Shown: positions 4,669-40,117 of the stretch, in pieces
Layout of the letters: each line of letters starts with the position of its first letter
Numbering within the stretch: the stretch's first letter is position 1
Program-made: the position numbers and the translations under genes
The notes under the pieces: generated by a model
What the model saw: only the letters and a program-made list of their open reading frames with translations
Database searches by the model: none
What the model was told of the DNA's origin: nothing
DNA from: an uncultured Smithella sp.
GTDB lineage: Bacteria; Desulfobacterota; Syntrophia; Syntrophales; Smithellaceae
Assembly: GCA_964626775.1 (NCBI GenBank)
Contig: CAZVGQ010000001.1
Location: forward strand, 1-40,117
Length of the DNA stretch: 40,117 bases
Direction: 5' to 3'

Positions 4669-4869
4669 TAGTTTCCTCCTGGCGTTGCGGCTTTGATCGA
4701 GCCGTCTGTTGTTTGATGGTTTGTTTTGTAATTTGGCCACTCCTTGTGGGGATGTCAACCAACGATCGCGGCCGAATCAGGGAACGCTCTCGATAATCTG
4801 GCCACCTGATTACCTAAAGGTCATGCGAGGTGGTGCGAGGTTACAAGGGTGTTCCCTGCGCTCACTTTC

Positions 4870-6051: not shown

Positions 6052-6437
6052 GATTTTGACCTCTCTCAATTTTATTTTTTGCGCTTTGGAAATAAGCGTT
6101 AATACACGTTTTGAACCACCCGATACCGCGGCAGTCCATCGCTTCTGACCAATAACTTACAAAAGTCTCTTTTCAAAATATTCGTGCTCTTACCAATTAT
6201 TATTTTATGTGGCAAGTCCTTATTAACGAATAGACCTAAAAGCGCTGAAAGAAGAACCGCATAGTAATCATTATGTAATAACAAAGGGATACGTATTACG
6301 TCCGTTTGTTTTGCAGGCGAATATTGAACATGGATAAATTGTGTATTTGTTTTTTCAATTAGGCAAATCTTTTCAGTGAAGATCCGTTCCTGCCTTGATC
6401 AAAGATATAGGGATCGGGGGTAAGTCTGAATACATTT

Positions 6438-10950: not shown

Positions 10951-12246
10951 CTATTGTCTGTAAATCTCTTTAAATTCCCGCTTTAAGTCTTCTCTGAATT
11001 CAGGAGCCGCGATTTTTGACAGGGCTTCCACGCGTTCCCTGACGGTTTTCCCCCAAATGTTGGCAATTCCATATTCCGTGACAATGTAATCTACTTCGGC
11101 ACGCGTCGTGGTAACAGCCTGGCCTCTTTCAAAGGCTGCCACAATCCTCGATTTTGTGCCGGACGCCGCAGTAGCCGGCAAAGCAATCACACTCCTTCCC
11201 CCTGATGAAATTCTACAGCCTCTCACAAAATCAACTTGTCCTCCAACACCGCTATACTGAACGGGACCGATGGCATCTGCCGCAACCTGTCCCAACAGGT
11301 CAACGGCCACCGCTGAATTAACGGAAAACATGTTGTCGTTTCTTCCAATAACGTAAGGATTGTTGGTATAATCAACAGGATGCATCTCAATCATGGAATT
11401 CTCATGCATCCACTCATAGAGCTGGTCGCTCCCCAGGGCGAATGTAAAAATCATTCTGCCGCGATGGAAGTTCTTTTTCCGGCAGGTGATGATCCCTTTT
11501 TCAACGAGATGCATCACCCCGTCAGAAATCATTTCCGAATGGATGCCGAGGTCATGCTTTCCTTCTATAAATCTCAATATGGCATCCGGAATCTGGCCAA
11601 ATCCCAGCTGCAGACAGTCGCCGCTTTTAATTAATGTGGCCACATTAGACGCAATAGCTTCTTCCACCGGCCCAATGTTGGGCGACGGAAGCGGCAACAT
11701 GGGACGATCACTGACAATAAAGTGACCGATCTGTGAAACATGCAGAAAAGTGTCTCCATAGGTTTTCGGCATGAAGGGCGAAACTTCCGCAATAACCTTT
11801 TTGGCATTTAAAGCCGCGGCCAGGGAATAATCCACGGAGATGCCCAGGCTGACGTTCCCCACTTTATCGGGCAGCGATACCGAAATCAGGGCAACGTCAA
11901 TCGGCAGAACGCCTCTACGAATTAATGAGGGATAGTCGCTGAGGAATGCCGCCGTGAAATCAGCACGATCCTCTCTTATGGCCTGCCTTTGCGTAGGTCC
12001 GGCAAACATGGCATTATGTCGAAAAGAATTCTGATATTCAGGACGACAATATAAACTTTTGCCATAAGATACCATGTGCACGATTTCTACGTTCTGGAGT
12101 TCATGAGCTCGTTTGACCATCGCGTCATAAACCGGTTCAGGCGTGCCTCCGCCGGTTCCTGAAATGATTCGATCCCCCGACTTGATCAAATGTGCTGCTT
12201 CTTCTACGGTGATTGCTCGTTCACGGATGTATTGGTTCCAGTCCAT
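10951..12246 (-). CDS. acetyl-CoA hydrolase/transferase family protein, 4-hydroxybutyrate CoA-transferase-like
   Basis: Typical length (~431 aa) and motifs: GIHSEMISDG (candidate catalytic Glu), SGVGGQVDF (GxGGxxD) and YIVTEYGIANIWGK. ATG 12246 lies 7 nt after AGGAG. Confidence 0.8.
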   Translation of the reverse strand: MDWNQYIRERAITVEEAAHLIKSGDRIISGTGGGTPEPVYDAMVKRAHELQNVEIVHMVSYGKSLYCRPEYQNSFRHNAMFAGPTQRQAIREDRADFTAAFLSDYPSLIRRGVLPIDVALISVSLPDKVGNVSLGISVDYSLAAALNAKKVIAEVSPFMPKTYGDTFLHVSQIGHFIVSDRPMLPLPSPNIGPVEEAIASNVATLIKSGDCLQLGFGQIPDAILRFIEGKHDLGIHSEMISDGVMHLVEKGIITCRKKNFHRGRMIFTFALGSDQLYEWMHENSMIEMHPVDYTNNPYVIGRNDNMFSVNSAVAVDLLGQVAADAIGPVQYSGVGGQVDFVRGCRISSGGRSVIALPATAASGTKSRIVAAFERGQAVTTTRAEVDYIVTEYGIANIWGKTVRERVEALSKIAAPEFREDLKREFKEIYRQ

Positions 12247-12272
12247 CACTAACTCCTATTGGCCTTTTCTTG

Positions 12273-20681: not shown

Positions 20682-21557
20682 ATGGTGACGTATATTGAGA
20701 ATGTTCTGGTTTTTACGTTTGTAATGGGGTCCATTTATCTTCTGCTGGCCCTTGGCTTCTCCCTGATCTGCGGGGTGCTGCGGATTTTTCATCTTGGATA
20801 CGCCTACATCTTTCCACTTACGGTTTACGGTACCTGGATGTTCATGTCGGCCCTGGGATGGCCCCTGATTCCCTCCATTCTCGGAATGATCGTCGTTCAG
20901 TTCATCGTTTCCATCATTATTTACAAGGGAATGATCAAGAAATACATGACGACGGAAGATGTCCTCCTGACAGCCCTTCTGCTGGTCGCGCTGATCGTGG
21001 AACAGGCCGCGAATTACTTTTATCCGATTCAGACGGGCGTGTATCTGGAAACCACTCTGGCCGAAGGCACCTATCAGTTCGGTGACGCGGTGGTGCCCAA
21101 ACAGCTGATTATCGGCGCCCTGATCGCGCTGGCGATGACCGGCGCCTTTGTATTCTTCTTTGTTAAAACAAAAACCGGCATGGCCATCCGCGCTTTGTCC
21201 CAGGATATTTATTCATCGAAAATTGTCGGTATTAATGTTGAAACGCTTTATATTTTTACGATGATGATCGTCCTTTTGCCTGTTATCATCGGTACGCTTC
21301 TTACAGCGCCTGTCTGGTCAGTTGAGCCGGCCATGGGTTGGATGTACATGGTGACAGCGATCCTGGTCGCGGTTTTAGGCGGGTTGGGCAACATTAAAGG
21401 CACGATCATTGCCAGTTTTTTAATCGGATTTACCCACGCCATTGTTTGTTTTGTTCTCGGAGAGCCGCGCTTCATGAATCTGTCGGCGCTGATTCTCGTC
21501 ATGATCATATTGGTTATTCGACCCCAAGGATTAGCAAGGAGTGAATCGCTATGGTAG
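20682..21557 (+). CDS. branched-chain-amino-acid-type ABC permease (LivH-type)
   Basis: A polytopic membrane protein with a LivH-like N-terminus (FVMGSIYLLLALGFSLICGVLRIFHLGYA). Confidence 0.85.
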   Translation: MVTYIENVLVFTFVMGSIYLLLALGFSLICGVLRIFHLGYAYIFPLTVYGTWMFMSALGWPLIPSILGMIVVQFIVSIIIYKGMIKKYMTTEDVLLTALLLVALIVEQAANYFYPIQTGVYLETTLAEGTYQFGDAVVPKQLIIGALIALAMTGAFVFFFVKTKTGMAIRALSQDIYSSKIVGINVETLYIFTMMIVLLPVIIGTLLTAPVWSVEPAMGWMYMVTAILVAVLGGLGNIKGTIIASFLIGFTHAIVCFVLGEPRFMNLSALILVMIILVIRPQGLARSESLW

Positions 21558-22591
21558 AAATGGAATTAAAGAGAGACCGAATTGTTATCCGGCTTGGAAC
21601 AAAAAAGTGGGAATGGGTTCTTGAGCCGCGTTACTGGCGCAACACCCTGCTGTGGGCGGCCTTCCTAATGATCGCCCCGGCGGTCGCCTATTTTGTCAGC
21701 CCCGGGTTGATCAACACGATGATTTCAGCCAATATCTACGCCGCCATTGCAATGCCGCTGGCGCTGATGACCATCGGCACGGGGCGCATGAATTTCGGCC
21801 CTCAATTTTACATCGGCGTGGGAGGCTATACGGCGGCGCTCTTGAGCATTGCTTACGGTTGGGGGCCGCTGACTACTTTGCCCTTTGCCATCCTGATGTC
21901 CATGATTGCGGCGCTGATCTTCAGCCCGCTGGTCATCATGGCGCGGGGCCTTTACTACGTTCTCCTGACGCTGCTGCTGCCGCTGGTTTTTCTGGAAGTG
22001 ACCTTCATCTATACCGACATTTTCAAGGGCGATACGGGACTTTTCGGCATTGTGCCGCTTTTGGACACCGGCAACGCCAAAAACAATTTTTTGATCATCG
22101 GTTATCTTTCCACGGCGATCATGTTTGCTTATTTGTGGTTCATCAACAAAATCCTGAAATCCCGCTACGGGCTTTTAATGGCGTCGATCAACGATGATGA
22201 AGATGTTGCCCACTCCATCGGCATCAATATCAACAAGATCAAAATTATCGCATTTGTCGCCGCCTCGACGCTGATCGGCATCATCGGATGGTTTTACGCG
22301 CACTATTTCAGCTCGTTTGCCGGCATTACGTACCTGCCGCTGACGTTTATGCTGAAGGTTCTCTTGGTCCTGATGATCGGCGGACGCGCCCAGGTGTTCG
22401 GCTGCGTGGTCGGCGGCTATTTTGTCGCCTTCTTGGAGATGCTGATGATTCGATTTATGGGGCCGATCCAACCGCTGTTGTTCCCCATTATTCTTCTGAT
22501 TTTGTTGTTTATTCTTCCGGAAGGCTTGTTCGGCCTTTATCGAAAGCGCCGTTATCGCGAATATTTGCCAACCATTCACGTGCGGAGGTAG
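21551..22591 (+). CDS. branched-chain-amino-acid-type ABC permease (LivM-type)
   Basis: A polytopic membrane protein of LivM-like size. It overlaps the upstream permease gene by 7 nt. Confidence 0.85.
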   Translation: MVEMELKRDRIVIRLGTKKWEWVLEPRYWRNTLLWAAFLMIAPAVAYFVSPGLINTMISANIYAAIAMPLALMTIGTGRMNFGPQFYIGVGGYTAALLSIAYGWGPLTTLPFAILMSMIAALIFSPLVIMARGLYYVLLTLLLPLVFLEVTFIYTDIFKGDTGLFGIVPLLDTGNAKNNFLIIGYLSTAIMFAYLWFINKILKSRYGLLMASINDDEDVAHSIGININKIKIIAFVAASTLIGIIGWFYAHYFSSFAGITYLPLTFMLKVLLVLMIGGRAQVFGCVVGGYFVAFLEMLMIRFMGPIQPLLFPIILLILLFILPEGLFGLYRKRRYREYLPTIHVRR

Positions 22592-24043: not shown

Positions 24044-25399
24044 ATGGAAGATTATTTTTCTTATACGGCAAAACTTTTCAATCCCGAGGAGGCAAGCCAA
24101 AAGCCTGAAGCGCTCAAAGGCATCCGGGTGATGGATTTTTCCCACGTCATCTTCGGGCCGATTGCGGCGAGGCTTCTGGCGGATTACGGCGCGGAAGTGA
24201 TCAAGCTGGAGCTGCCTTTTTACGGCGATCTTTGGCGTCCGGCGACGTACTGGGGCAAATACTGGAAGCACTCGAATCCCATTTGGCACAATATCACCAA
24301 GAACAAGTATTTCCTCTCGGTGAACCTGCAGCTCAGGGAATCGAAAGAACTGATTTATCAAATGGCCAAAGATGCGGACGTAGTCATTGAAAACTTTGCG
24401 CCCGGAACGGCGGACGCCTGGGGCATCGGCTATGAGAAAATCTCCAAAATCAACCCGAACATCATATTCTTGAGCTGTTCCACTTACGGCCAGTTCGGTC
24501 CGATGCGGTATTTCCCCGGGTGGGATCTTCTGGCCCAGGGCGCAAGCGGCGTGCTGACCCTGAACGGCTATCCGGACACGGACAATTTTTACAAGCTGCC
24601 GGACTACGTGGGCGACTTCGTGCCGGGCAATTTTGCCGCGCTGGCCGCGCTGATGGCGCTGTACTACCGGAAGAAAACCGGAAAGGGTCAGTACATCGAC
24701 ATGGCGCAGACCGAAGGGCTGATGCGAACCCTTTTTCATTATACCTATTATTCCGTGACTCAAAAAGCGATCGGACGCACCGGAAATGTCGATCCCACGA
24801 TGGTGCCGGCGGCCATCTTTAAAACGGCCGACGACAAGTTTCTGGCGCTGGCCTGCGCGACGTCCGAACAGTTTGAAAATTTCGCCCGGGCCATCGGCAG
24901 GCCCGAGCTGTCTTCGGATCCGCGGTTTTCGGATACGCTGGAGCGGCTGAAGCCGGAAAACGCCAAAGCGCTCCATGAGATCGCGGTGGACTGGATCCGG
25001 TCGCAGCCCTGCGCTGATGTGATCCGCCTGGCCGACGATAAGAATTTTCCGGCGGCGGAGGTGGCGGACGATTACATGATCGCCAATGAGGAATGGCGCC
25101 GCAAACGCGGAAGCGTGGTGCTTTTCAAGGACGATGTGTACGGCCATCTGGTGATTGCCGGTCCGTCCGCCATGCTTTCCGGCACGCCTTCCCGCACCAA
25201 GTGGCTGGCGCGGCCGCTGGGGTATCACAACCGGCTGGTGCTCAAGAAATTTCTGGGGTTGAGCGAAGCGGACATTGAAAAGCTGGAGAAGAAAAAAGTC
25301 ATCGGGACATTTGACGACAGACCGGGATTGAAGCCGCCTGTCTATTACGATCTGAGCAAGGACCCCATCTATAACTACGGAAAAGAGGTTGGAAAATGA
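24044..25399 (+). CDS. family III CoA-transferase (CaiB/BaiF/Frc family), putative catalytic subunit
   Basis: The N-terminal signature LKGIRVMDFSHVIFGPIAARLLADYGAEVIKLE. The segment GDFVPGNFAALAALMALYYRKKTGKGQ carries an Asp at the position of the catalytic Asp169 of CaiB/Frc (aligned from memory). Confidence 0.85.
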   Translation: MEDYFSYTAKLFNPEEASQKPEALKGIRVMDFSHVIFGPIAARLLADYGAEVIKLELPFYGDLWRPATYWGKYWKHSNPIWHNITKNKYFLSVNLQLRESKELIYQMAKDADVVIENFAPGTADAWGIGYEKISKINPNIIFLSCSTYGQFGPMRYFPGWDLLAQGASGVLTLNGYPDTDNFYKLPDYVGDFVPGNFAALAALMALYYRKKTGKGQYIDMAQTEGLMRTLFHYTYYSVTQKAIGRTGNVDPTMVPAAIFKTADDKFLALACATSEQFENFARAIGRPELSSDPRFSDTLERLKPENAKALHEIAVDWIRSQPCADVIRLADDKNFPAAEVADDYMIANEEWRRKRGSVVLFKDDVYGHLVIAGPSAMLSGTPSRTKWLARPLGYHNRLVLKKFLGLSEADIEKLEKKKVIGTFDDRPGLKPPVYYDLSKDPIYNYGKEVGK

Positions 25400-26718
25400 G
25401 CCCCAAGGAAGAAGTCTATACACGGCACGGCGGCAAGGGCGGCGACCGGGGGAAAATTCTCGCCGAAATGATGAACGCCGAAGGAAAACCGGAAGTGCTC
25501 GACGACATTCTGGTGCTGGATGTCAGCTCGGCCAATTTTGCCGGCATTATTGCCGCCAGCTTCTTTGCGGAGTTCGGCGCGGAGGTCGTCAAAATCGAGC
25601 CTCCGAAAGGCGACCCGGCCCGGCAGATCACGCCTTTCGGCGTGACGGTGCAGGGGGTGGGCATTCCCTTCATGTTCGAAGGACGCAATAAGCGGTACAT
25701 GACGCTCGACATTCGGAACAGGCCGGAAGACAGGAAAACGTTCGCGAAGCTGGCCAAACAGGCGGCGGTTGTGATTGAAAGCTTTGCGCCCGGTGAGATG
25801 GACGGCTGGGGGATCGGCTACCGCCAGTTGTCCGTGGAGAATCCCGGATTGATCTACATCGCGCTTTCCGCCTACGGACAGTACACGGATAAAGCCAGAG
25901 AGTCCGCGGGAGTTCCGGATACGGACGTTACGTCCCAGGCGGGTTCAGGGCTTCCCGCGCAGATGGGCGCGCCGCCCAATGAACCGGAGCCCTATACCTG
26001 GCCTCTCAGAGGCGGCATGTGGGCGGGCTGGTACATTTCCGGGCTTTCCGCGGCCGTGGGGGGAACGGTCGCCCTCATCCACCGGCAAAACACCGGCCAG
26101 GGACAGATGGTGGATGTCGCCGGAATGGACGCGTATTCCTCCATGGTCGGCATGCCCGCCACCATCGGCTTTACCTGGGAAAAAGCCAGACCGCGCATCG
26201 GCGTTCTGGACTTCATTCTCTATCCGTACGGCCACTGGAAATGCAAGGACGGCTATGTGGCGATCGCCGCGCCGCGGGACCATGATTTCCGCGCGCTCTT
26301 GAAGGTTCTGGGCCTGTGGGAGCAGGAAGACGACTGGCGCTATTCGTCGGACCGCATCCCCGATATTCTGGAGCAGGCCATTCATTTGCACAAGATCATT
26401 GAGGAAAAAACGCTGCTGTACACCGGCGACGAACTGGTGAAGATGGCGCTCAATTACAGCAAAAAATCCGCCCGCTCCAAGTGGCGGGGCGGCGGCGTGC
26501 CCATTGTCATGAAGCTGATGACGCCCGAAGCCGCGATGGAAAACAAGCAGTGGCACATCCGCAAGGCTTTTCAGGACGTGGAGGACAAAAAGCTGGGCAA
26601 GTACACGATCAGCTCCAATTTTGTAAAAATGTCCGAATCGCCTCCCCGCGTGAAATGGGTGGGAAGCGAAATCGGCGGGGATAATGAATATATCCGGAAA
26701 AAATATTTAAACGATTAG
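25396..26718 (+). CDS. family III CoA-transferase paralog, putative non-catalytic partner subunit
   Basis: LDDILVLDVSSANFAGIIAASFFAEFGAEVVKIEPPKGDP. In the aligned segment GWYISGLSAAVGGTVALIHRQNTGQGQ a Trp stands where the paralog has Asp. An ATGA start/stop overlap couples it to the upstream gene. Confidence 0.8.
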   Translation: MSPKEEVYTRHGGKGGDRGKILAEMMNAEGKPEVLDDILVLDVSSANFAGIIAASFFAEFGAEVVKIEPPKGDPARQITPFGVTVQGVGIPFMFEGRNKRYMTLDIRNRPEDRKTFAKLAKQAAVVIESFAPGEMDGWGIGYRQLSVENPGLIYIALSAYGQYTDKARESAGVPDTDVTSQAGSGLPAQMGAPPNEPEPYTWPLRGGMWAGWYISGLSAAVGGTVALIHRQNTGQGQMVDVAGMDAYSSMVGMPATIGFTWEKARPRIGVLDFILYPYGHWKCKDGYVAIAAPRDHDFRALLKVLGLWEQEDDWRYSSDRIPDILEQAIHLHKIIEEKTLLYTGDELVKMALNYSKKSARSKWRGGGVPIVMKLMTPEAAMENKQWHIRKAFQDVEDKKLGKYTISSNFVKMSESPPRVKWVGSEIGGDNEYIRKKYLND

Positions 26719-26787
26719 AAGGATCAAATATTCGGCAGAAATTTGATCGTATTTTTAAGGGGAATTTTGATAAACAGGAGGGGAAAC

Positions 26788-28149
26788 ATGATGAAGAGAG
26801 CAAGCAGAGTCAAGATGGTCGTTGTGACGGCGCTGGTACTGCTGGTTGCGATTGCTATCAGCGTACCATCCGTTGCAGTGGCGCAGCCGAAGGGAGAGCC
26901 GTTTGTGATCGGCTACATCGGCATGGTCGGATCGCCGGGCACCCGCCCGTGCATGGATATCCAGAAAATGGCGGTGGAGGAAATCAACGCCACCGGCGGC
27001 ATTCTGGGCCGGCCGGTCAAGTACGTGGTCATGGACAACAAGGGTGACACGTCTCTGTCCGTTGAGGCGTTTCGCAAACTGGTCATTGAGGACAAGGCGA
27101 AATTCATCTCCGTCGAAGGCCGGACGGAAATCTGCCTGGCCGTTCAGGAAGCCTCCGGAATGCTGTTTAAGGAATACCCCCACATTCTGGTTTTCAACGG
27201 GCCGATGGGCGCGGAACTGACGGCGCGCATCATCGATGAGGCGCCGAAATACAATCACTGCTTCCGTGACTGGGATCCGGAGCCGGCGCATTATGCCCAG
27301 ACGAAGTATTTCTTCTGCAAGACCATGCCCCAGTACCAGAAAACCAAAAAAATTGCTTTCCTCTGGGAGGATCTTGCTTGGACCACGGAATGGCGCAAAG
27401 GCATCAGCTACATCGATCTGCCCACCTGGGAAAAAATGGCCAAAGACTGCGGTCTGGAAGTGGTGTACAGCAAGGCGGTCAAACCCCGCGGCACCATGTA
27501 CCTGCCGATTCTGCAGGATATCAAAAAATCCAACGCCGATTTGATTTTCTACATCAGCTCGTGGTTTACGGACACGGAATCTTTTGCCAAACAGTGGTCG
27601 GATTCCGCGGCCAGGGACATTCAGGTCAACCTCTACGGCGGCGTTGCTCAGACCTACGATTACTGGCGGATGACGGGAGGCAAGGCCCTGGGGATCATCA
27701 GTTCCTTCACGGATCTGGATGATATTCCTCTGACGCCTAAAACCGTTCCGCTGGTCAAAAAAGCCCATGCACGGAAAATCCCCATGCAGATCCATGTCCA
27801 TATCGCTTATGCTGATATTTATCATTTCAAGGCGGCCATCGAAAGAGCGAAAGGAACCGGCAACATCAATGCGCTCATCAAGGCCATGGAGGATGTGGAA
27901 ACGGTCTATTCGCTGGGCAAGATGAAATATGAAACACGCAAAATCAAACCTTTCTACCATTCCCGCATGAGGGTTGACGCGGCTAATCCTTGGAAGACCT
28001 ATCCCGGATATTACCTGCAGCTGATTGTTCAGTTCCAGAAGGACGGCAAGGTTGCCTTCCTGCACGAGTCCTGCGAGGAAAACGAAAAACTGGTATCCAA
28101 ATGGGTGGATCCCAAACGCTATAAGACCCCGGCCGAGTTGAGGAAGTAA
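26788..28149 (+). CDS. ABC transporter substrate-binding protein (type 1 periplasmic-binding fold)
   Basis: A signal peptide (MMKRASRVKMVVVTALVLLVAIAISVPSVAVA) and EEINATGGILGRPVK. ATG 26788 follows AGGAGGGG. Confidence 0.85.
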   Translation: MMKRASRVKMVVVTALVLLVAIAISVPSVAVAQPKGEPFVIGYIGMVGSPGTRPCMDIQKMAVEEINATGGILGRPVKYVVMDNKGDTSLSVEAFRKLVIEDKAKFISVEGRTEICLAVQEASGMLFKEYPHILVFNGPMGAELTARIIDEAPKYNHCFRDWDPEPAHYAQTKYFFCKTMPQYQKTKKIAFLWEDLAWTTEWRKGISYIDLPTWEKMAKDCGLEVVYSKAVKPRGTMYLPILQDIKKSNADLIFYISSWFTDTESFAKQWSDSAARDIQVNLYGGVAQTYDYWRMTGGKALGIISSFTDLDDIPLTPKTVPLVKKAHARKIPMQIHVHIAYADIYHFKAAIERAKGTGNINALIKAMEDVETVYSLGKMKYETRKIKPFYHSRMRVDAANPWKTYPGYYLQLIVQFQKDGKVAFLHESCEENEKLVSKWVDPKRYKTPAELRK

Positions 28150-33653: not shown

Positions 33654-34445
33654 ATGAAAATCAAAAAAGACGCAAAGCAAAAAAGAACCAGGATCGGCCT
33701 TTTCGGTTTCGGTAAAACCGGCCGTCTGGTGGCGGAAGAGTTTTTTCAGGACGGTTTATTCGATCTCGAGTGGGTGGTCCGGAAAACGCACAAGGAAAAT
33801 CACAAATATGCGTCCCGTCTGCTGGGGTATGAAGTGGATGACGCGAGGGTTTTTTCGGTGGATGAAGCGAACCCTGATTTTTACCGGCTGCACCCGGTGG
33901 ACATCATCGTTGATTTTTCAAGCGCCGCCGCTCACCGGCAGTACGCGCCCGCCGCCGATTTTGGAATCCGGATCATTTCCGCCATCTCGAAGTACAGAAC
34001 GGAAGACGTGGAGGATTTGAGGCGGATGGCTGAAAAAACGGCGGTGCTGTATTCGCCGAACATCACTCTGGGTATCAATTTTCTGCTCGTGGCTTCGCAG
34101 ATCCTTCAGGGAATCGCTCCACACGCGGATATTGAAATCGTGGAAGAGCACTTTCGCGGCAAGAAAGAGGAATCCGGCACCGCTTTGAAAATCGCGGAGG
34201 TTCTGGGCCTGGAAAAGGAAAAGCGCGTCAACTCCATTCGCGTGGGAGGAATCGTGGGCAAGCACGAAATCATTTTCGGTCTGCCCAACCAGACCATCCG
34301 TCTGGTGCATGAGAGCATCAGCCGGGCGGCGTTTGGACAGGGCGCCATTTTTGCCGCCAAATGGCTGATCCAGGCTCCACCGGGACTCTATTCCATGGAA
34401 AATATCATCGTGGATATGTTTAAGAAAAACATTCCCGTTTACTAG
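33654..34445 (+). CDS. 4-hydroxy-tetrahydrodipicolinate reductase (DapB) family protein
   Basis: An N-terminal Rossmann motif (IGLFGFGKTGR). DIEIVEEHFRGKKEESGTA aligns with E. coli DapB [20 protein letters not shown] (from memory), and the His and Lys are retained. Confidence 0.7.
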   Translation: MKIKKDAKQKRTRIGLFGFGKTGRLVAEEFFQDGLFDLEWVVRKTHKENHKYASRLLGYEVDDARVFSVDEANPDFYRLHPVDIIVDFSSAAAHRQYAPAADFGIRIISAISKYRTEDVEDLRRMAEKTAVLYSPNITLGINFLLVASQILQGIAPHADIEIVEEHFRGKKEESGTALKIAEVLGLEKEKRVNSIRVGGIVGKHEIIFGLPNQTIRLVHESISRAAFGQGAIFAAKWLIQAPPGLYSMENIIVDMFKKNIPVY

Positions 34446-36370
34446 ATATCCATCAGCATCAGCTTGTCGCCGATATCCACGGACGAACCGGGGGACGCAA
34501 AGATTTCCGAGACCTTGCCGTCCACGTCCGCCAGGATGTTGGTGAGCATTTTCATGGCTTCCAGGACGACCAGCGTGTCGCCGACGCCGACCTCGTCGCC
34601 CACCGCCACGGGAATCTGGTTGACGACGCCCTTCAGGGTTGCGCGGATATCGCCCATTCTGGCCAGCGCCTCGATTTCCTTGGCGGAAAGCGCCACGGGA
34701 GTTTTTGGCTTTTCTCCCTCGCTGTCGGCCGGTGTGACGACGGGTTCGGGATGGTAATCAATTCCCAGATGCGTCATGTACGAGCCGTCCTTGGTGCGGC
34801 GGGAAGGGCCGATTTCAATGGTGTGCAATTTGCCGGTGGCGTCGGGGAATTCAAATTTGTCGCCGATGCTGAATCCGCCGCGGCGGAACCACACGTTGGG
34901 CGGCAGCACCCATGTCTTGCCGAACTTTTCCTCAAACTTGAAAAAGCCCACCGCGTCATTGGGATGCTGCAGATACAACACCAGCTCGTCGTCGTCGGCC
35001 TTCCGGCCGATCGCGTGCTCCAGGATTCGTTTTTCAACGTCCAGATCGACGTCTTCGATTTTCTGGTAGCCGGCTTCCCTTCTTACGATTTTTCTCCAGT
35101 CTCCGCCGAAGACCGCTTCATAAATCTCCGGCGCCGGCTTGTAAAACGGGAACTTGCCGTAGCGCTCCAGAAGCAGATTTTTCAAATCGTCGCTGGCGTC
35201 CCGGTAGCGCGCTCCCTTTACGACATTGTTGGCGGCCGTGGTCCACAGGATCTGTGAACCGGGAGTGACGCTCCAGAAGTTGCCCAGTTCGACCTGCACA
35301 CGGGGCAGTTCGTTTTGCAGAATATCCGGCATGCGGTCCAGAAAGCCGCCCTTTTGCGCCTGTTCGAAGCTGGACCCCGTCGCACCGCCGGGCAGCTTGT
35401 GGGTTTGCACCGTCGGGTCGAATCCGAAAAACTGCGATTCGAAATCACGGTAATAGGGTCGTTCGCGCCGCAGTTTGTTGGACGCGTCGATGACGGCCTG
35501 TTTGTCCAGCCCGACGGCGGGAAAGCCGTAATCTTCCAGTGTGTTCACCACCGTCAACAGCGGCGGCGGCCCGTAGAAGCCGGTCAGCGCATGGTCGCTC
35601 GCATCCACGATTTTCGCGCCGTTTTGCACGGCGGCCACGATGCGGCCGATTTCGTTGCCGTCGGTGTTGTGTCCGTGGTAGTGAATCAGCAGATCGGGAT
35701 ACTTCTGCACGATGGCGCGCACCAGCTCGCCGATTTGCCGGGGGGATCCCAGCCCTCCGTGATTTTTAATGGCCAACAAAATATCCGGACCGGTCACGTC
35801 CAGAATTTCACCGATTTTCCGAATGTAGAACCGATGGGTATGCTCCGGCCCCGTCGAGAAGCAGACGGCCGCTTCGAGAATACGCCCCGCTTTTTTGACT
35901 TCTTCATAAACGGGGATCATGTTGGGGATGTAGTTTAAAAAGTCGAACACCCGCCAGACATGGACACGGCGGGCAAACGCTTCCACCGTCAGACGGATGA
36001 TGTTTTCCGGATACGGGCGGTAGCCGAACAGATTGATGCCGCGGCACAGGGTCTGGAATAGCGTGTCGGGCATCAGTCCCGCGAGCACGTCCAGTTTTTC
36101 CAGCGGATTCATCTGCCGGCGCAGCAGATCGACGTGCACCGACGCGCCGCCCGTGATTTCCAGGGAGAAGTATCCGGCCGCGTTGCGCTCCGGGGCGACG
36201 AGCATCTGTGTGTGGGGCATGATCCGGTTTTTAAAGTCCGACTGCGAAAGGTCCCTCTCGGTATTGGTGAGGTAGTATCCTTTTTGTCCGCGCATTTTGT
36301 CCAGAATGGATTTAACCCCGTCGCTTTGAAGATCCCGGGGGGTGATCCGTCCTTCCGGCCAGCTTTTCAT
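34442..36370 (-). CDS. biotin-dependent carboxylase, carboxyltransferase plus biotin-carrier subunit (PycB/OadA-like, divergent)
   Basis: An HMGL-like TIM-barrel region colinear with PycB (…QTLCRGINLFGY…WRVFDFLNY…HYHGHNTDG…). The C-terminal biotinyl domain carries the EAMKM motif (VVLEAMKMLTNI). Confidence 0.8.
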   Translation of the reverse strand: MKSWPEGRITPRDLQSDGVKSILDKMRGQKGYYLTNTERDLSQSDFKNRIMPHTQMLVAPERNAAGYFSLEITGGASVHVDLLRRQMNPLEKLDVLAGLMPDTLFQTLCRGINLFGYRPYPENIIRLTVEAFARRVHVWRVFDFLNYIPNMIPVYEEVKKAGRILEAAVCFSTGPEHTHRFYIRKIGEILDVTGPDILLAIKNHGGLGSPRQIGELVRAIVQKYPDLLIHYHGHNTDGNEIGRIVAAVQNGAKIVDASDHALTGFYGPPPLLTVVNTLEDYGFPAVGLDKQAVIDASNKLRRERPYYRDFESQFFGFDPTVQTHKLPGGATGSSFEQAQKGGFLDRMPDILQNELPRVQVELGNFWSVTPGSQILWTTAANNVVKGARYRDASDDLKNLLLERYGKFPFYKPAPEIYEAVFGGDWRKIVRREAGYQKIEDVDLDVEKRILEHAIGRKADDDELVLYLQHPNDAVGFFKFEEKFGKTWVLPPNVWFRRGGFSIGDKFEFPDATGKLHTIEIGPSRRTKDGSYMTHLGIDYHPEPVVTPADSEGEKPKTPVALSAKEIEALARMGDIRATLKGVVNQIPVAVGDEVGVGDTLVVLEAMKMLTNILADVDGKVSEIFASPGSSVDIGDKLMLMDI

Positions 36371-36403: not shown

Positions 36404-37852
36404 CTAAAAGGCATAGGGATTTATTTTTTTCGAGTGAATCTCCGCGATCAGCCGGGACAGCTTGGCGATTTCCCGTTCGGTGTCGGGATAGTCAAAGATT
36501 TCGGAATGTTCATCGAGATAGCCGGTCGTAAATTGACCCTTGCGAAAGTCCGGCTCATCGCAGATGGACAGATAAAACGGGATCGTCGTTTTCGGACCGA
36601 CAATCAAAAAGTCGTGGAGCGCGCGCTTCAGGCGCTGAATGGTCTGCTCCCAGGAATAGCCGCGCACGGTGAGTTTGACCAGGAGCGAATCGTAATCGGT
36701 GGGAATTTTGTAGCCCTGATACACGATGCCGTCGAGACGGATTTCCGGGCCGCCGGGCGACTGATACACCTCGACGCGCTTGCCGCCTTCCGGCATGAAG
36801 TTGTTTTTGGGGTCTTCGGCGTTGATGCGGACCTGAATGGCTTTGCCGACCAGATGGATCCGTTCCTCCGGAATGTCCAGCGTCTCGCCTTCGGCCATCA
36901 GAATCTGCTGGCGGATGATGTCGATGCCCGTGAGGATTTCCGTGACGGTGTGCTCCACCTGCAGGCGGGTGTTGACCTCCATAAACCAGAATTCGTTGGT
37001 TTTCGGATCCACCAGAAATTCCACCGTGCCGGCATTGACGTACCCCGCTTCACTGGCCGCCCGAATGGCCGTCTGGTGCATGGCGTCAAGCACGCTTTTC
37101 GGCAGGTCGGCCGGTGCGATTTCCAGCAGCTTCTGGTGGCGGCGCTGAATGGAGCAGTCGCGCGTGCCCAGATGCATCGCATGGCCGTAGGCATCGGCCA
37201 GAATCTGCACTTCGACGTGGCGGGGCGACTCGACGCATTTTTCGATGTAAATGCGGTCGTCGTTGAAGGCGGAGCGCGCTTCGGAGCGAGCTTGCGGCAG
37301 TTGGGCGCGGAGGTCTTCTTCGCCGGCAATTTTGCGAATGCCGCGTCCGCCGCCGCCGGCCAGCGCTTTGAGCATGATCGGATAGCCGTGCGTTTTGCCG
37401 AAGGCCACGGCCTCCGAAAGGCCCGCATCGCCCGCGGAAAGCGTGCCGGTTCCCGGAATAAAGGGGATGGAGGCTTTTTTCATGATGTCGCGGGCGACGA
37501 CCTTATTACCCAGATCACGAATGACCCGGGGGGGAGGTCCGATAAACGTGATTCCCGCATCGACGCAGGCCTGGGCCAGATCAGGATTTTCCGACAAAAA
37601 ACCGTAGCCCGGGTGAATGGCGTCCGCTCCGGCTTTTTGCGCTGCTCCGATGATTTTGTCAATATTCAGGTAATCCCTGCGCGGCCCGTCTCCGATCAGA
37701 ATGGCCTGATCGGCAAATCGCAGAAAATACGCTTCGCTGTCCGGTTTTTCATAAACCGCGACGGTGGAAAGCCCCATTTCCTTGGCGGTGCGGATAATGC
37801 GCAAAGCGATTTCCCCCCGGTTGGCCACCAGTAATTTTTGGATTTTTTTCAT
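36404..37852 (-). CDS. biotin carboxylase subunit (AccC/PycA-type)
   Basis: KLLVANRGEIALRIIRTAKEMG, HPGYGFLSEN, KALAGGGGRGIR and FMEVNTRLQVEHTVTE. ATG 37852 follows AAGGAAGAAAGGG. Confidence 0.92.
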   Translation of the reverse strand: MKKIQKLLVANRGEIALRIIRTAKEMGLSTVAVYEKPDSEAYFLRFADQAILIGDGPRRDYLNIDKIIGAAQKAGADAIHPGYGFLSENPDLAQACVDAGITFIGPPPRVIRDLGNKVVARDIMKKASIPFIPGTGTLSAGDAGLSEAVAFGKTHGYPIMLKALAGGGGRGIRKIAGEEDLRAQLPQARSEARSAFNDDRIYIEKCVESPRHVEVQILADAYGHAMHLGTRDCSIQRRHQKLLEIAPADLPKSVLDAMHQTAIRAASEAGYVNAGTVEFLVDPKTNEFWFMEVNTRLQVEHTVTEILTGIDIIRQQILMAEGETLDIPEERIHLVGKAIQVRINAEDPKNNFMPEGGKRVEVYQSPGGPEIRLDGIVYQGYKIPTDYDSLLVKLTVRGYSWEQTIQRLKRALHDFLIVGPKTTIPFYLSICDEPDFRKGQFTTGYLDEHSEIFDYPDTEREIAKLSRLIAEIHSKKINPYAF

Positions 37853-38006
37853 AAACGCCCTTTCTTCCTTAGTTGAGATGACGCCTCTGTATGTAGGGGT
37901 TATACTTGCCCCGCCCAAGGCCTGTCAAGCACAGAGTCTTGCAATGATTATTTGATTATTTTGATGAAATATTTTATCGTGTCGCACGTTTATTGAGGGC
38001 GTTCTT

Positions 38007-39905
38007 ATGAAAGACAGCACGATGAAGGGTTTTTTCGACTATCGCAGCAAGGTGATCGGGACGGATCAGGTGCTGGAAAAGCTGAAGCCCGGGCAGAAGA
38101 TATTTTTAACCAGCGGCGTTGCGGCGCCGGGGAAAGTACTGACGGCGCTGGCCCGGTCGGACGCGAAGAATCTGCGCGACCTGGAGATCATTCAGCTGAT
38201 TACGCTGCGCAAATACCTGTCTCACCAGAGCTCCGATCAGTACCGGCTTAAAACATTCAATGTCGGAGAAAGCATCAGCAAGGAAGTCGCCGAGGGCCGG
38301 GTCGATTTCATCCCCGCCAACCTGATGGAGCTGCCGTACATTTTTTTAAGCGGCGCGGTGGCGGTGGACGTCGCGATCATTCAGACGTCCGTGCCGGACG
38401 AAAGGGGCTTCATGTCCCTGGGCGTCGCGGTGGACGTGGCCAATATCGTCATCAAGCAAGCCGCGCTGGTGATTGCGGAAATCAATCCGAACATGCCGGT
38501 GACGCTGGGCGAAACGACCATCCACATCAGCAGCATTGACTATGTCGTCGAAAGCGATCTGCCGCTGGTCGAGCGGATCAACCGGCCCTACGACGAGATT
38601 ACGGACCGCATCGGGTGGAATATTTCCAACCTGATCGACGACGGGGCGACCGTCGTGCTGCACGTGGGCAGATTGTTCAACGCCGTGGCCGATCACCTGA
38701 AGCAAAAACGCAACCTCGGCATCGTGACGCATGTGGTTTCCGACTGGGCGATGGACCTGATTGAATCCGGCGCCATCTCGCTTGACCGCAGCCGGTTCAA
38801 CGGCGGACTGATTACCGCCAGCTATTGCTACGGCAGCAAAGCGCTCTACCGGTACGTTCACCGCAACCCCATCTTTGAATTCTATCCGATCGCGAGGCTC
38901 AACAATCCTTTCGTGGTGCGCCGGATCAAAAGCCTCATCGGCATCATGAACGTGAAAAAGATAGACATTTCCGGCGAATCGGTCATCTTCCATTCCGGCG
39001 ACAACCTGCTGACCGGCTACGAAAGCAAGCTAAACTTCGCCGTCGGCGCGACGATGACCCGAAGAGGCAAGGCGATTGTGGCGCTCAATTCCGTGGATAC
39101 GGAGGGAAACAGCAATATCGTCATTCGGTTTGACGGCCGGACCGACAACACCCACAGCACGCTTGGTGTCGTGAAATACATCGTCACCGAATACGGCGTG
39201 GCCAATCTTTTCGGAAAGTCCATTCGGGAAAGGGCGCTGGCCATGATCGACATCGCCCACCCGGACCATCGCGAAGACCTGCTTAGGCAGGCCAAGGCGC
39301 TCAATTATGTCTATGCGGACCAGATTTATGTCGCCCGCCACGCAGCCAACTATCCGGCACTGCTGGAAACGCGCAAATCCCTGAAAGACGGTCTGGAAAT
39401 CAAGGTTCGTCCGATCAAGCCCTCCGATGAGGACAAGATGCGGCGGCTGTTTTACAACTTCTCCGATGAATCGAAATATTTCCGTTATTTTGCCCCGAAG
39501 CCGGTCATGCCCCACAAGGAAATGCAGACCTATGTGAGCATTGATTATGATGAGGTTCTGTCCGTGGTGGCCGTCGCGGAAAAAGGGCGGAATGAAAGAA
39601 TTATCGCGGAAGCCCGTTATGCGTATGACAAAAGAGCCGGCGCGTATGAGATTGCGTTCATTGTCGATGAGGACTTTCAGGGAAAGGGCGTGGCCACCTT
39701 TTTGTTTAAGTATCTGATCAAAATCGCGCGTGACCGGGGAATTCAATGGTTTGTCGCCTATGTGTTGCCGCGCAATGAATCCATGATGAAGGTCTTTGAA
39801 AAATCAAAATTGCCCATTCAGAAATCCTATGATGCAGACGCGCTGGTTTTGCGTTTTGATCTGGCGCAGGAGGTTGCACAGACGGATGCGGCCGCAAAAC
39901 AATAG
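38007..39905 (+). CDS. fusion protein: acetyl-CoA hydrolase/transferase-like domain (degenerate motifs) plus C-terminal GNAT acetyltransferase (Pat-like)
   Basis: Residues 1-~440 are colinear with the CoA-transferase at 10951-12246 (e.g. YIVTEYGVANLFGKSIRERA). Residues ~463-620 form a GNAT domain with the acetyl-CoA loop FQGKGVATFLF. GAGGG lies 7 nt upstream of the ATG. Confidence 0.85.
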   Translation: MKDSTMKGFFDYRSKVIGTDQVLEKLKPGQKIFLTSGVAAPGKVLTALARSDAKNLRDLEIIQLITLRKYLSHQSSDQYRLKTFNVGESISKEVAEGRVDFIPANLMELPYIFLSGAVAVDVAIIQTSVPDERGFMSLGVAVDVANIVIKQAALVIAEINPNMPVTLGETTIHISSIDYVVESDLPLVERINRPYDEITDRIGWNISNLIDDGATVVLHVGRLFNAVADHLKQKRNLGIVTHVVSDWAMDLIESGAISLDRSRFNGGLITASYCYGSKALYRYVHRNPIFEFYPIARLNNPFVVRRIKSLIGIMNVKKIDISGESVIFHSGDNLLTGYESKLNFAVGATMTRRGKAIVALNSVDTEGNSNIVIRFDGRTDNTHSTLGVVKYIVTEYGVANLFGKSIRERALAMIDIAHPDHREDLLRQAKALNYVYADQIYVARHAANYPALLETRKSLKDGLEIKVRPIKPSDEDKMRRLFYNFSDESKYFRYFAPKPVMPHKEMQTYVSIDYDEVLSVVAVAEKGRNERIIAEARYAYDKRAGAYEIAFIVDEDFQGKGVATFLFKYLIKIARDRGIQWFVAYVLPRNESMMKVFEKSKLPIQKSYDADALVLRFDLAQEVAQTDAAAKQ

Positions 39906-40062: not shown

Positions 40063-40117
40063 ATGTCAAATGCAGTCATTGTCAGCGGTGTGCGCACGGC
40101 GGTTGGAGCCTTCGGCG
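40063..40117 (+). CDS. thiolase (acetyl-CoA acetyltransferase), 5' fragment running off the right edge
   Basis: MSNAVIVSGVRTAVGAFG is a canonical thiolase N-terminus. GGGAGG lies upstream of ATG 40063. Confidence 0.7.
   Translation, partial: MSNAVIVSGVRTAVGAFG

Follow-up and report, generated by a model that had tools for sequence, protein, structure and literature searches.

The window analysed here, a 40,117-nucleotide stretch of DNA from an uncultured Smithella sp., carries a gene that joins a CoA-transferase-like domain to a GNAT acyltransferase domain. On balance, we favour the reading that its product is a Pat-like protein lysine acyltransferase with a non-catalytic regulatory or scaffolding module derived from a CoA-transferase. 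The two domain identities, the missing catalytic residues, strong purifying selection at the rebuilt site, the wide distribution of the family and the genes that recur beside it are all observed; from these we infer that the GNAT acts on protein lysines, which proteins it modifies and that a ligand is sensed. In the mechanism we propose, the C-terminal GNAT would transfer an acyl group from acyl-CoA to lysine side chains of target proteins. The N-terminal 430 residues, which appear to descend from an AbfT/RipA-type CoA-transferase, would serve as a non-catalytic regulator and scaffold, rigidly docked on the GNAT much like the dead ACD-like domain of Pat/PatZ. Regulation would most likely depend on a ligand occupying what was once the acyl-CoA cleft, now remodelled, or on oligomer formation and the docking of substrates. 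The fusion family probably acylates lysines of acyl-CoA-metabolising enzymes, and the prime candidate target would be the catalytic Lys of the PX4GK motif in AMP-forming acyl-CoA synthetases; products of a neighbouring thiolase/CoA-transferase cluster may be further targets in Smithellaceae. The gene and its parts are as follows.

38007..39905, + strand: CoA-transferase-like/GNAT fusion gene, complete, 632 aa (ORF list; Pfam; ribosome-binding site; full-length orthologues)
38034..39296, + strand: N-domain, residues ~10-430, class I CoA-transferase fold (AbfT/RipA type), catalytically degenerate (phmmer against the PDB, AF2, Foldseek, dN/dS)
39297..39344, + strand: conserved inter-domain linker, residues 431-446 (family alignment; Pat-type alignments begin at ~447)
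39345..39863, + strand: Pat-type GNAT acyltransferase domain, residues ~447-619, with a YP..LE..L.DG lead-in (PDB matches, Foldseek, NCBIfam)

The plus-strand ORF at 38007-39905 stands as originally predicted, with a GAGGG ribosome-binding site 7 nt 5' of the ATG and full-length orthologues at 61-98% identity. Pfam places AcetylCoA_hydro at residues 55-184 (E 4e-22), AcetylCoA_hyd_C at 276-429 (E 4e-40) and the GNAT family Acetyltransf_1 at 511-599 (E 1.5e-9). A search of the PDB returned no single chain in which both domains occur together. Modelling with AF2 from a 96-sequence alignment gave a pLDDT of 89.5 and a pTM of 0.87 (single-sequence AlphaFold reached a pLDDT of only 33), and this pTM indicates a confidently predicted, fixed mutual placement of the N-domain and the GNAT in the model.

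By both homology and structure, the N-domain has the class I CoA-transferase fold of the AbfT/RipA type. Homology extends over both the PF02550 and PF13336 halves, phmmer against the PDB matches 9vag at E 9.5e-85 (further matches 3eh7, 3d3u and 3gk7), and Foldseek comparison with RipA/AbfT gives TMt values of 0.84-0.89. A comparator with an intact active site lies within the window itself.

10951..12249 (stop codon included), - strand: stand-alone CoA-transferase, active site intact (Pfam, NCBIfam, BLASTP)

Residues 1 to ~440 had been described as aligning with this enzyme over long gap-free stretches, and BLASTP bears this out at 31% identity with 5 gaps in 423 columns (E 3e-72); the alignment also contains the 24-residue colinear block leading up to the shared (S/A)(V/I)(I/V)AL. 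A recent duplication of the in-window gene was considered as a source of the N-domain and rejected: the N-domain shows 31-34% identity to this enzyme and to the CoA-transferase encoded downstream in related loci, less than the 41% that these two enzymes share.

Loss of the catalytic apparatus centres on four features.

38661..38663, + strand: His219, where active enzymes have the first Gly of G-V-G, a loop beside the catalytic Glu that lines the CoA cleft (family alignment; RipA spacing)
38730..38732, + strand: His242 (CAT), at the site of the catalytic Glu nucleophile (BLASTP and PDB alignments; conservation in orthologues)
38946..38948, + strand: Met314, candidate equivalent of the internal oxyanion-hole Asn, the mapping being tentative (family alignment; AarC Asn347)
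39015..39038, + strand: G337-Y-E-S-K-L-N-F344, in place of the GxGGQxDF external oxyanion-hole loop (BLASTP, PDB and family alignments)

The original prediction read the change from GIHSEMISDG to GIVTHVVSDW as the replacement of the catalytic Glu by His242, and this holds against both the in-window enzyme, where His242 aligns with Glu239, and the 'hTEm' Glu of the solved 4-hydroxybutyrate CoA-transferases 9vag, 3eh7 and 3d3u. The alignment around His242 is gap-free, Glu occupies the site in 100% of 44 active-like relatives, and the fusion thus carries His242 where class I CoA-transferases have their catalytic Glu (RipA Glu249, AarC Glu294). The second predicted replacement, of GVGGQVDF by GYESKLNF, is also real, but the range given for it (nt ~39012-39035) lay 3 nt to the left of the true position. 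Residues 337-344 align with GVGGQVDF or sGfGGQlDF, so that G337-Y-E-S-K-L-N stands in place of the GxGGQxD external oxyanion hole (AarC Gly388). Alignment with CoA-transferase structures (9vag, 3eh7 and 3d3u, with Foldseek to RipA/AbfT) agrees that the Glu nucleophile and the GGQ loop are both gone.

Remodelling of the N-domain goes further than these two motifs, with differences at 21 of the 73 positions conserved in active relatives. Position 219 is Gly in 98% of active-like relatives, and its distance from position 242, 23 residues, equals that from G226 to E249 in RipA, where the G-V-G loop helps to line the CoA cleft (PMC3180442). The fusion reads H219-V-G here and has also lost the conserved basic residues (R91S, K262S, R346V, R386L). 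Position 314, Met in the fusion, is Asn in 93% of active-like relatives, and AarC Asn347 forms part of the internal oxyanion hole (PMC4876117). The best reading of these substitutions is that the N-domain can no longer make the glutamyl-CoA intermediate. Because the G-V-G loop and four basic residues are lost, CoA binding by the N-domain is not assured either.

The architecture is shared widely. A CoA-transferase/GNAT fusion is present in 82 of 129 scorable 50%-identity representatives; 29 of these 82 have both motifs and 34 have neither. The family ranges over Smithellaceae, Syntrophales, Desulfobacterales, Spirochaetota, WOR-3, Latescibacterota, Planctomycetota, Victivallales and others. The fusion is therefore a large family and not a one-off, and many of its members have an intact active site. 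The prediction that the architecture is uncharacterised fits the literature, where a search for GNAT and CoA-transferase domain fusions, including by domain architecture, found no relevant publication.

Loss of the canonical catalytic motifs might at first sight point to a decaying fusion or functionless pseudogene, and we regard this as having next to no chance of being correct. The ORF is intact in more than 120 orthologue clusters and the fold is predicted with high confidence. Values of dN/dS are 0.03-0.15 for the 'dead' N-domain, compared with 0.04-0.20 for the GNAT domain, and this measured purifying selection contradicts decay. The replacement residues have themselves become fixed: no variation occurs at H219, H242, D246, W247, G337, E339 or K341 among 33 orthologues with identity of at least 61%. 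From these invariant new residues and low dN/dS values, the N-domain is a constrained pseudoenzyme rather than a product of decay.

The conserved polar residues H219, H242, E339 and K341 in the old site could also signal a new catalysis instead of none. In that case the N-domain would still be an enzyme with a rebuilt site, for instance an acyl-CoA hydrolase or a catalyst of another acyl transfer through E339, H242 or H219, and the protein would be bifunctional; we consider this improbable. It would account for invariant new polar residues at old catalytic positions and for the very low dN/dS, and E339 takes the place of an oxyanion-hole Gly that faces the nucleophile, as mapped from PMC4876117. 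N-domain catalysis is also compatible with the fusion as such, because the 29 representatives noted above retain a complete CoA-transferase active site. However, the external oxyanion hole, described as strictly conserved across class I CoA-transferases (PMC4876117), is gone from the Smithella fusion, and His219, invariant in close orthologues, is Asn together with position 242 in some Spirochaetota orthologues that retain GYESKLNF. His242 is thus not indispensable, since a Spirochaetia subclade has Asn there. At position 242, degenerate lineages elsewhere in the family have Pro, Asp, Gln, Ala or others, with no shared replacement. A His/His/Glu metal or catalytic site formed by H219, H242 and E339 was considered separately, and is weakened by the replacement of both His residues with Asn in several Spirochaetota orthologues.

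Alternatively, the N-domain could be a pure scaffold for di- or oligomerisation and substrate docking that binds no small ligand, leaving the lysine-acyltransferase GNAT to be governed by acyl-CoA supply and expression alone. We think this rather unlikely, though it deserves serious attention. The basic residues at 91, 262, 346 and 386, the G-V-G loop and the oxyanion loop are all lost in the Smithella protein, and E339 and K341 could conceivably do no more than plug the former pantetheine tunnel. In PatZ, the regulatory domain reportedly forms a direct part of the pocket that receives the substrate, and it gives the Acs-binding pocket its shape. AbfT/RipA-type enzymes, moreover, are obligate dimers or tetramers (PMC3180442). 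Against a pure scaffold, the clade-invariant residues H219, H242, D246, W247, E339 and K341 sit precisely in the old active site, which looks more like a functional pocket than a filled cavity, and other degenerate lineages retain the four basic residues in 55-67% of cases. For the reading that we favour, a lysine acyltransferase under the control of its N-terminal module, acyl-CoA sensing by the dead N-domain is plausible by analogy with Pat/PatZ, whose regulatory domain is catalytically inactive and binds acetyl-CoA (PMC8556138). The conserved, remodelled pocket and the pTM of 0.87 hint at an effector bound by the N-domain that would alter GNAT activity. The original prediction had invoked the Pat precedent of an inactive, acyl-CoA-synthetase-like sensor, in agreement with that review.

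Two sites define the acyltransferase half of the protein.

39648..39650, + strand: Glu548, counterpart of the 'aEvAF'/'aEfAv' Glu found in Mt-Pat and PatZ (PDB alignments)
39678..39695, + strand: Q558-G-K-G-V-A563, acetyl-CoA pyrophosphate-binding loop, Q/R-x-x-G-x-G/A (sequence; motif from PMC8556138)

The proposed likeness of the C-terminus to Pat is well supported by structural comparison. The best matches of the GNAT domain are all Pat-group protein lysine acetyltransferases, namely S. lividans PAT (4nxy/4u5y, E 2e-25), E. coli PatZ (9it0, E 4e-17) and Mt-Pat (4ava, E 1e-11), and they include a PAT GNAT structure bound to the Acs C-terminal domain. These alignments begin at the 'YP..LE' lead-in that distinguishes the Pat subgroup, NCBIfam returns 'acetyltransferase Pat' at E 8e-23, and Foldseek superposes the domain on Pat-type GNATs with TMt 0.88-0.91 and an rmsd of ~2 Å. 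Glu548, which we take to be the GNAT catalytic base, is E, rarely D, across 80 loci. The FQGKGVA loop is intact as predicted: Q558-x-x-G561-x-A563 conforms to the Q/R-x-x-G-x-G/A definition (PMC8556138) and is conserved across loci. The ACD-like regulatory domain of Pat types I and II was sought in the fusion as CoA_binding, Succ_CoA_lig or ATP-grasp_5, with no match.

GNAT substrate specificity cannot be read from sequence, and some KAT-like GNATs acetylate small molecules too (PMC6456759). The domain might acylate a small molecule or a protein N-terminus rather than lysine; the fusion would then act as a metabolic N-acyltransferase, supplied by its own CoA-transferase in the active members. 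We give this proposal little credence. Generic source annotations (RimJ/RimL-type or GNAT N-acetyltransferase) and weak NCBIfam and PDB matches to arsinothricin and phosphinothricin acetyltransferases lean towards it, and an active CoA-transferase coupled to a GNAT could in principle channel an unusual acyl-CoA. The Pat-group matches are, however, better by 15-20 orders of magnitude and include the Pat-specific N-terminal lead-in; the family contains HDAC fusions and HDAC neighbours, and acyl-CoA synthetases bearing PX4GK adjoin orthologues. Two family members carry Hist_deacetyl, an HDAC-type domain, as a third, C-terminal domain (E 1e-79 and 3e-85). These are writer-eraser fusions, and they point to protein-lysine acylation as the activity of the GNAT.

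The genes around the fusion in the window are the following.

34442..36370, - strand: pycB, carboxyltransferase and biotin carrier (Pfam, NCBIfam)
36404..37918, - strand: pycA, biotin carboxylase subunit, divergent neighbour (Pfam, NCBIfam)
40063..40117, + strand: 5' end of a thiolase gene (MSNAVIVSGVRTAVGAFG...) that runs past the window (window-tail translation; full genes in loci L002, L058 and others)

The true start of pycA is probably at 37852, and the gene is called at 482 aa in L002. The thiolase begins 157 nt 3' of the fusion gene, and a promoter/terminator scan of this gap gave chance-level matches only. It is the first gene in a conserved thiolase/alpha-beta hydrolase/active CoA-transferase cluster, and the Smithellaceae fusion gene lies between pycAB and this cluster. 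The thiolase and the carboxylase had both been put forward as targets, and both do recur beside the fusion in Smithellaceae; the carboxylase nevertheless seems the less likely target, and the context of orthologues directs attention first to AMP-forming acyl-CoA synthetases, which are the classical substrates of Pat. Adjacency to pycAB occurs at 17 Smithellaceae loci and is absent from Spirochaetota and from more distant loci. Being restricted in this way, it is a weak sign of a functional link, and we rejected the carboxylase as a conserved partner.

In Smithellaceae no acyl-CoA synthetase gene adjoins the fusion, the neighbours being pycAB, the thiolase, hydrolase and CoA-transferase genes and PAS/HD signalling genes. 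At eight Spirochaetota loci a dead-motif orthologue lies 11-570 nt from an AMP-binding acyl-CoA synthetase with LPESxVGK, and at eight intact-motif loci an ADP-forming acetyl-CoA synthetase lies 27-166 nt away. Both associations, with the PX4GK synthetases and with the ADP-forming enzymes, point to protein-lysine acylation, although carrying the target from Spirochaetota over to Smithellaceae is indirect. One locus (L083) clusters a bona fide Acs, an ACD and an HDAC with the fusion. Besides the two members with a fused deacetylase, an HDAC gene is found within 10 kb of the fusion in three distinct loci (L001/L037, one contig in two records; L042; and L083 itself).

Bacterial protein acetylation is classed according to which regulatory domain accompanies the GNAT, namely ACD-like, cAMP, ACT or NADP+ (PMC6456759, PMC8556138), and a widespread regulatory type derived from a CoA-transferase is absent from that classification. 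The family also offers an enzyme-to-pseudoenzyme series within one architecture, in which one can ask how a metabolic enzyme turns into an allosteric sensor. In syntrophic degraders of fatty acids and aromatics, as described in PMC8942843 and PMC9676460, acyl-lysine marks on acyl-CoA ligases and thiolases are unusually abundant and chemically diverse; the available sections of these two papers name no dedicated acyltransferase for them. The fusion gene is a concrete candidate, which makes enzymatic versus non-enzymatic acylation testable in syntrophs. As a tentative extension, in which we place some hope but less than even belief, the fusions may add a fourth major type to the multidomain lysine acyltransferases of bacteria. 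A class I CoA-transferase module, still catalytic in certain phyla but a remodelled pseudoenzyme elsewhere, would replace the ACD-like sensor and couple acylation to the acyl-CoA/carboxylate state; in Smithella and Syntrophus such a protein could be the missing 'writer' for part of the very large acyl-lysine proteomes now ascribed to non-enzymatic reactive acyl-CoAs.

Compared with the class I CoA-transferases AbfT, RipA and AarC, the N-domain has the same two-lobed fold along its full length and keeps 52 of 73 family-conserved positions, mainly structural Gly and Pro. Substitutions have removed their Glu nucleophile, GGQ external oxyanion hole, G-V-G loop, conserved Asn and four basic residues, and the fusion has an extra GNAT domain. 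Intact-site fusions (P0127, P0132 and WOR-3 loci L071-L077) share the architecture and the Pat-type GNAT through full-length homology at 33-39% identity; they differ from the Smithella fusion in keeping QxGxGxxP, HTE and GxGGQxDF and in adjoining an ADP-forming acetyl-CoA synthetase.

Among lysine acyltransferases, Pat/PatZ/YfiQ of Salmonella enterica and E. coli (type I, class I-alpha) resembles the fusion in having a large N-domain from a CoA-thioester enzyme that lacks its catalytic residue, a C-terminal GNAT with the YP..LE..DG lead-in (E 4e-17 to PatZ residues 709-882) and a genomic link to acyl-CoA synthetases, which is also seen for fusion family members. The Pat/PatZ regulatory domain is, however, a ~700-aa NDP-forming acyl-CoA synthetase-like domain, unrelated to the ~430-aa class I CoA-transferase fold of the fusion. 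Acetyl-CoA binding is demonstrated for Pat and proposed by analogy for the fusion N-domain, whose CoA-cleft lining is remodelled. SlPatA (Streptomyces lividans PAT, type II) provides the nearest solved GNAT (4nxy/4u5y, ~35% identity, TM ~0.9), crystallised with the Acs C-terminal domain, but has the GNAT N-terminal, an ACD-like domain C-terminal and no CoA-transferase fold, so that the domain order differs. The layout of the fusion, residues 10-430 followed by a GNAT at 447-619, is that of the type III (class I-beta) KATs Mt-Pat/Ms-Pat (Rv0998), MxKat and the ACT-domain PatA, in which a regulatory domain of 300-400 aa precedes the GNAT (definition in PMC6456759 and PMC8556138). Their GNATs are similar to that of the fusion, as the Mt-Pat and NCBIfam Pat matches attest; cAMP, NADP+ or amino acids are the ligands of the regulatory domains known in this type (PMC6456759), and a domain derived from a CoA-transferase is absent from that set.

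The 632-aa fusion protein is encoded by an ORF with a good ribosome-binding site, and Pfam places the following domains in it.

38007-39905, plus strand: CoA-transferase/GNAT fusion gene (the query)
Residues 55-184 of the query: AcetylCoA_hydro
Residues 276-429 of the query: AcetylCoA_hyd_C
Residues 511-599 of the query: GNAT

The original observation of a long, near-gapless alignment between the N-domain and the stand-alone AbfT-like CoA-transferase in the window was borne out (BLASTP, 31% identity over 423 columns with only 5 gaps, E 3e-72). This comparator gene lies on the minus strand, at 10951-12249. The query also matches the solved 4-hydroxybutyrate CoA-transferases 9vag (E 9.5e-85), 3eh7 and 3d3u. 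As had been proposed, His242 (nt 38730-38732) stands opposite the catalytic Glu of the HSE/HTE motif in the in-window gene and in all three structures. The replacement of their GxGGQxDF motif by G337-YESKLNF likewise holds in the alignment, but its coordinates are nt 39015-39038, offset by 3 nt from those first given. The acetyl-CoA loop of the GNAT domain, FQGKGVA, is intact as Q558-x-x-G-x-A563.

The extent of remodelling was assessed against 44 relatives that keep both Glu and GGQ, among which 73 positions are conserved at ≥85%. The query retains 52 of these, Gly and Pro for the most part, a sign that the fold is conserved, and alters the other 21.

Functional positions replaced in the query N-domain
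Glu nucleophile: E242H
Oxyanion loop: G339E, G340S, Q341K, D343N
G-V-G cleft loop: G219H
Conserved Asn: N314M
Basic residues: R91S, K262S, R346V, R386L
Other active-site neighbours: Q217V, P224F, H240V, G247W, Q324E

In the class I CoA-transferase RipA, the G226-V227-G228 loop adjoins Glu249, the catalytic residue, and forms part of the wall of the CoA cleft (PMC3180442); the 23-residue spacing between the G226 loop and Glu249 recurs between H219 and H242 of the query. In AarC the nucleophile is Glu294 and the internal oxyanion hole is provided by Asn347 (PMC4876117), of which the conserved Asn replaced by Met314 in the query is a candidate equivalent. Since the Glu, the oxyanion loop and other functional positions are all replaced, canonical ping-pong CoA-transferase chemistry is, judged from sequence, excluded for this domain. 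The fold itself is predicted to be retained: an AF2 model built from a 96-sequence alignment (pLDDT 89.5, pTM 0.87) superposes on RipA and AbfT with TM 0.84-0.89 (Foldseek).

The replacement residues are themselves under constraint. H219, H242, D246, W247, G337, E339 and K341 are unchanged across 33 orthologues down to 61% identity, and T-H-V-x-S-D-W and G-Y-E-S-K-L-N-F are the prevailing motifs among the 120 close homologues listed. In pairwise comparisons of the query with Smithellaceae orthologues, the N-domain has dN/dS values of 0.03-0.15 and the GNAT domain values of 0.04-0.20, so that the 'dead' domain is constrained at least as much as the catalytic one. Invariant replacement residues and low dN/dS rule out decay of the N-domain and indicate a constrained pseudoenzyme instead. 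A Spirochaetia subclade carries Asn at 242, and some of its loci also at 219 with GYESKLNF kept; His219 and His242 are therefore not indispensable.

As had been anticipated, the GNAT domain belongs to the Pat type. Residues 447-619 match the GNAT domain of S. lividans PAT (4nxy/4u5y, E 2e-25), residues 709-882 of E. coli PatZ (E 4e-17), Mt-Pat (E 1e-11) and Sulfolobus Pat. The lead-in 'YP..LE....L.DG...RPI.P.D' falls within the Pat-group alignments, as does the 'Y(F/Y)RYF' segment, and E548 is paired there with the Glu that Mt-Pat and PatZ carry in 'aE(v/f)A'. The GNAT model superposes on 4nxy/4u5y with TM 0.88-0.91 and an rmsd of ~2 Å (Foldseek), 4u5y being the structure in which the PAT GNAT is bound to the C-terminal domain of Acs. 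The best NCBIfam match is 'acetyltransferase Pat' (E 8e-23), and matches to small-molecule GNATs are 15-20 orders of magnitude poorer than those to the Pat group.

The CoA-transferase/GNAT fusions form a large family whose N-domains are, judged from their motifs, live in some members and dead in others. Proteins 97-98% identical to the query are encoded on Smithella/Smithellaceae MAG contigs, and close full-length homologues form at least 120 clusters at 61-97% identity. A profile-free exhaustive search was run over 1.84 billion representatives clustered at 50% identity, and the best 150 matches were kept; 129 of these have a complete N-domain, comprising 82 fusions (26-46% identical to the query) and 47 stand-alone enzymes.

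Active-site motifs among the 129 matches
82 fusions: Glu + GG, 29; Glu only, 13; GG only, 6; neither, 34
47 stand-alone: Glu + GG, 31; Glu only, 2; GG only, 11; neither, 3

Active-site conservation drops stepwise from stand-alone enzymes through intact fusions to degenerate ones. In a crude neighbour-joining sketch the stand-alone enzymes fall together with the intact fusions nearest them, and the degenerate fusions lie deeper on longer branches; the query falls with representatives P0121 and P0124. The tree as a whole carries limited weight. A coherent stand-alone clade of ~420-435 aa has Gly at the catalytic Glu, 'HSGM(I/V)SDG', and mostly keeps the GGQ loop (P0217, P0232, P0233, P0236, P0237, P0247, P0251, P0259, P0261, P0266). 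The 83 fetched loci were sorted into three groups.

Groups of fetched fusion loci
Group A: Smithellaceae, Syntrophus, Spirochaetota/Leptospirales; ≥50% identity; query-type dead site
Group B: Syntrophales, Desulfobacterales; ~40% identity; HTP.../GPGAV, degenerate in another way
Group C: WOR-3, Latescibacterota, Planctomycetota, Victivallales, Lysobacterales; 35-39% identity; intact QxGxGxxP, HTE and GIGGQxDF

The Spirochaetota/Leptospirales MAG proteins (loci L036-L054, L060-L063) share the dead-site motifs at 56-65% identity to the Smithella protein, suggesting that the gene has moved laterally between Syntrophia-like bacteria and anaerobic spirochaetes.

Additional domains and neighbouring genes, clustered over all fetched loci, bear on function. 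Two representatives, P0150 (1013 aa, E 1e-79) and P0189 (955 aa, E 3e-85), carry a third, C-terminal Hist_deacetyl domain, and their CoA-transferase motifs are degenerate, with Asp or Gly in place of Glu. One polypeptide would thus hold both a putative 'writer' and a putative 'eraser' of acyl-lysine, and the presence of a lysine-deacetylase domain next to the GNAT in one chain is strong, if circumstantial, evidence for acyl-lysine as the product of the GNAT. Deacetylase (HDAC) genes lie ≤10 kb from the fusion in three further distinct loci: L042, L083 and L001/L037 (two records of one contig). P0137, P0152 and P0281 (960-1067 aa) have an N-terminal ferredoxin-like 4Fe-4S dicluster domain, which may be a redox input.

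In 8 Spirochaetota loci an AMP-binding acyl-CoA synthetase gene lies 11-570 nt from the dead-site fusion, in most cases directly upstream and on the same strand; an acyl-CoA dehydrogenase gene lies downstream, and 5 of the 8 have an SSF symporter too. These synthetases end in LPES(N/T)VGK, the PX4GK motif that holds the lysine acetylated by Pat enzymes. In 8 group-C loci (L071-L074, L076, L077, L081, L083; WOR-3, Latescibacterota, Victivallales and other MAGs), a complete ADP-forming acetyl-CoA synthetase (ACD) lies 27-166 nt from the intact-site fusion. It has CoA_binding_2, Succ_CoA_lig and ATP-grasp_5 domains, a TIGR02717 score above cutoff and an apparently kept 'HTGALAG' His motif. In L083 the fusion gene clusters with genes for an HDAC, an ACD and a bona fide Acs, which scores 1032 bits in NCBIfam against a cutoff of 657.

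In Smithellaceae, pycA/pycB lie divergently upstream of the fusion gene in 17 loci. In ~20 loci it is followed on the same strand by genes for a thiolase, an alpha/beta-hydrolase and a CoA-transferase of the active, AbfT-like kind. The gap to this cluster is ~160 nt in roughly two-thirds of loci and 4-7 kb in the rest, where PAS sensor and response-regulator/HD genes are inserted. Such genes, between fusion and thiolase or just upstream of the fusion, occur in L003, L014, L018, L022, L033 and others. The mechanical pycA ORF starts at TTG 37918 (minus strand), and its relatives start at the Met of 'MKKIQKLL', ~37852; with the latter start the divergent intergenic region is ~154 nt rather than 88 nt. 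The cluster is complete in L002 (12060-15651). The thiolase N-terminal peptide TAVGAFGGSLKGV... matches an acetylated peptide reported for S. aciditrophicus thiolase SYN_02642 (PMC8942843), a suggestive but unspecific match.

40063-40117, plus strand: thiolase gene start, cut by the window end
169-3018, minus strand: 949-aa ORF, aldehyde:ferredoxin oxidoreductase (AFOR_N + AFOR_C) fused to iron-containing alcohol dehydrogenase
3208-6069, minus strand: HpaB-family protein (516 aa, far under HpaB cutoffs) and thiolase
20682-22591: ABC permeases of a branched-chain-type operon
24044-26718, plus strand: two tandem family III (CaiB/Frc-type) CoA-transferase genes inside that operon
26743-28149: ABC binding protein of the same operon

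The best NCBIfam similarities of the 949-aa ORF include 4-hydroxybutyrate dehydrogenase, and the HpaB-family protein is possibly 4-hydroxybutyryl-CoA dehydratase-like. With the thiolase and the AbfT-like CoA-transferase (10951-12249, minus strand) they share one region, and together hint at a 4-hydroxybutyrate/crotonyl-CoA type pathway.

In the query, a Pat-type GNAT that is intact is joined to a CoA-transferase fold that is conserved and rigidly packed but catalytically disabled. From sequence, models and analogy, we lean slightly towards a lysine-acylating GNAT with a regulatory and scaffold N-domain, resembling the dead ACD-like domain of Pat/PatZ. The GNAT would acylate lysines of acyl-CoA-metabolising enzymes; AMP-forming acyl-CoA synthetases come first among the candidates, joined in Smithellaceae perhaps by the thiolase or CoA-transferase encoded nearby. 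For the Smithella protein we infer the target by analogy with orthologues in another phylum. The ACD-like domain of Pat/PatZ has nanomolar affinity for acetyl-CoA, is the driver of cooperativity and gives the Acs pocket its shape (PMC8556138; PatZ preprint). A CoA thioester may still be a ligand of the remodelled cleft: tightly conserved new polar residues sit exactly at the old active site and argue for a functional pocket, while the loss of four conserved basic residues and of the G-V-G loop argues against such binding. We give a ligand sensor and a pure scaffold or docking module roughly equal weight.

Full-text literature searches found no paper on this architecture, in keeping with the original view of it as uncharacterised, and database names are generic, once wrongly 'butyrate:acetyl-CoA CoA-transferase'. 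The accessible parts of the syntroph acylome papers (PMC8942843, PMC9676460) report abundant multi-acyl lysine marks, the catalytic lysine of benzoate-CoA ligase being among the sites, and name no acyltransferase for them; the Syntrophomonas wolfei paper describes the marks as driven by reactive acyl-CoAs and shows that a non-enzymatic origin is possible. For Smithellaceae and Syntrophus-like genomes, the fusion family provides a concrete candidate for such a writer. Regulatory modules listed for GNAT lysine acetyltransferases are ACD-like (types I and II) or cAMP-, ACT- and NADP+-binding (type III) (PMC6456759, PMC8556138), and a CoA-transferase-derived module is absent from these lists. The query is alike in layout to type III/class I-beta enzymes and parallel in logic to Pat; the dead regulatory domain of canonical Pat comes from the same enzyme family as the ADP-forming acetyl-CoA synthetase encoded beside the group-C fusions.
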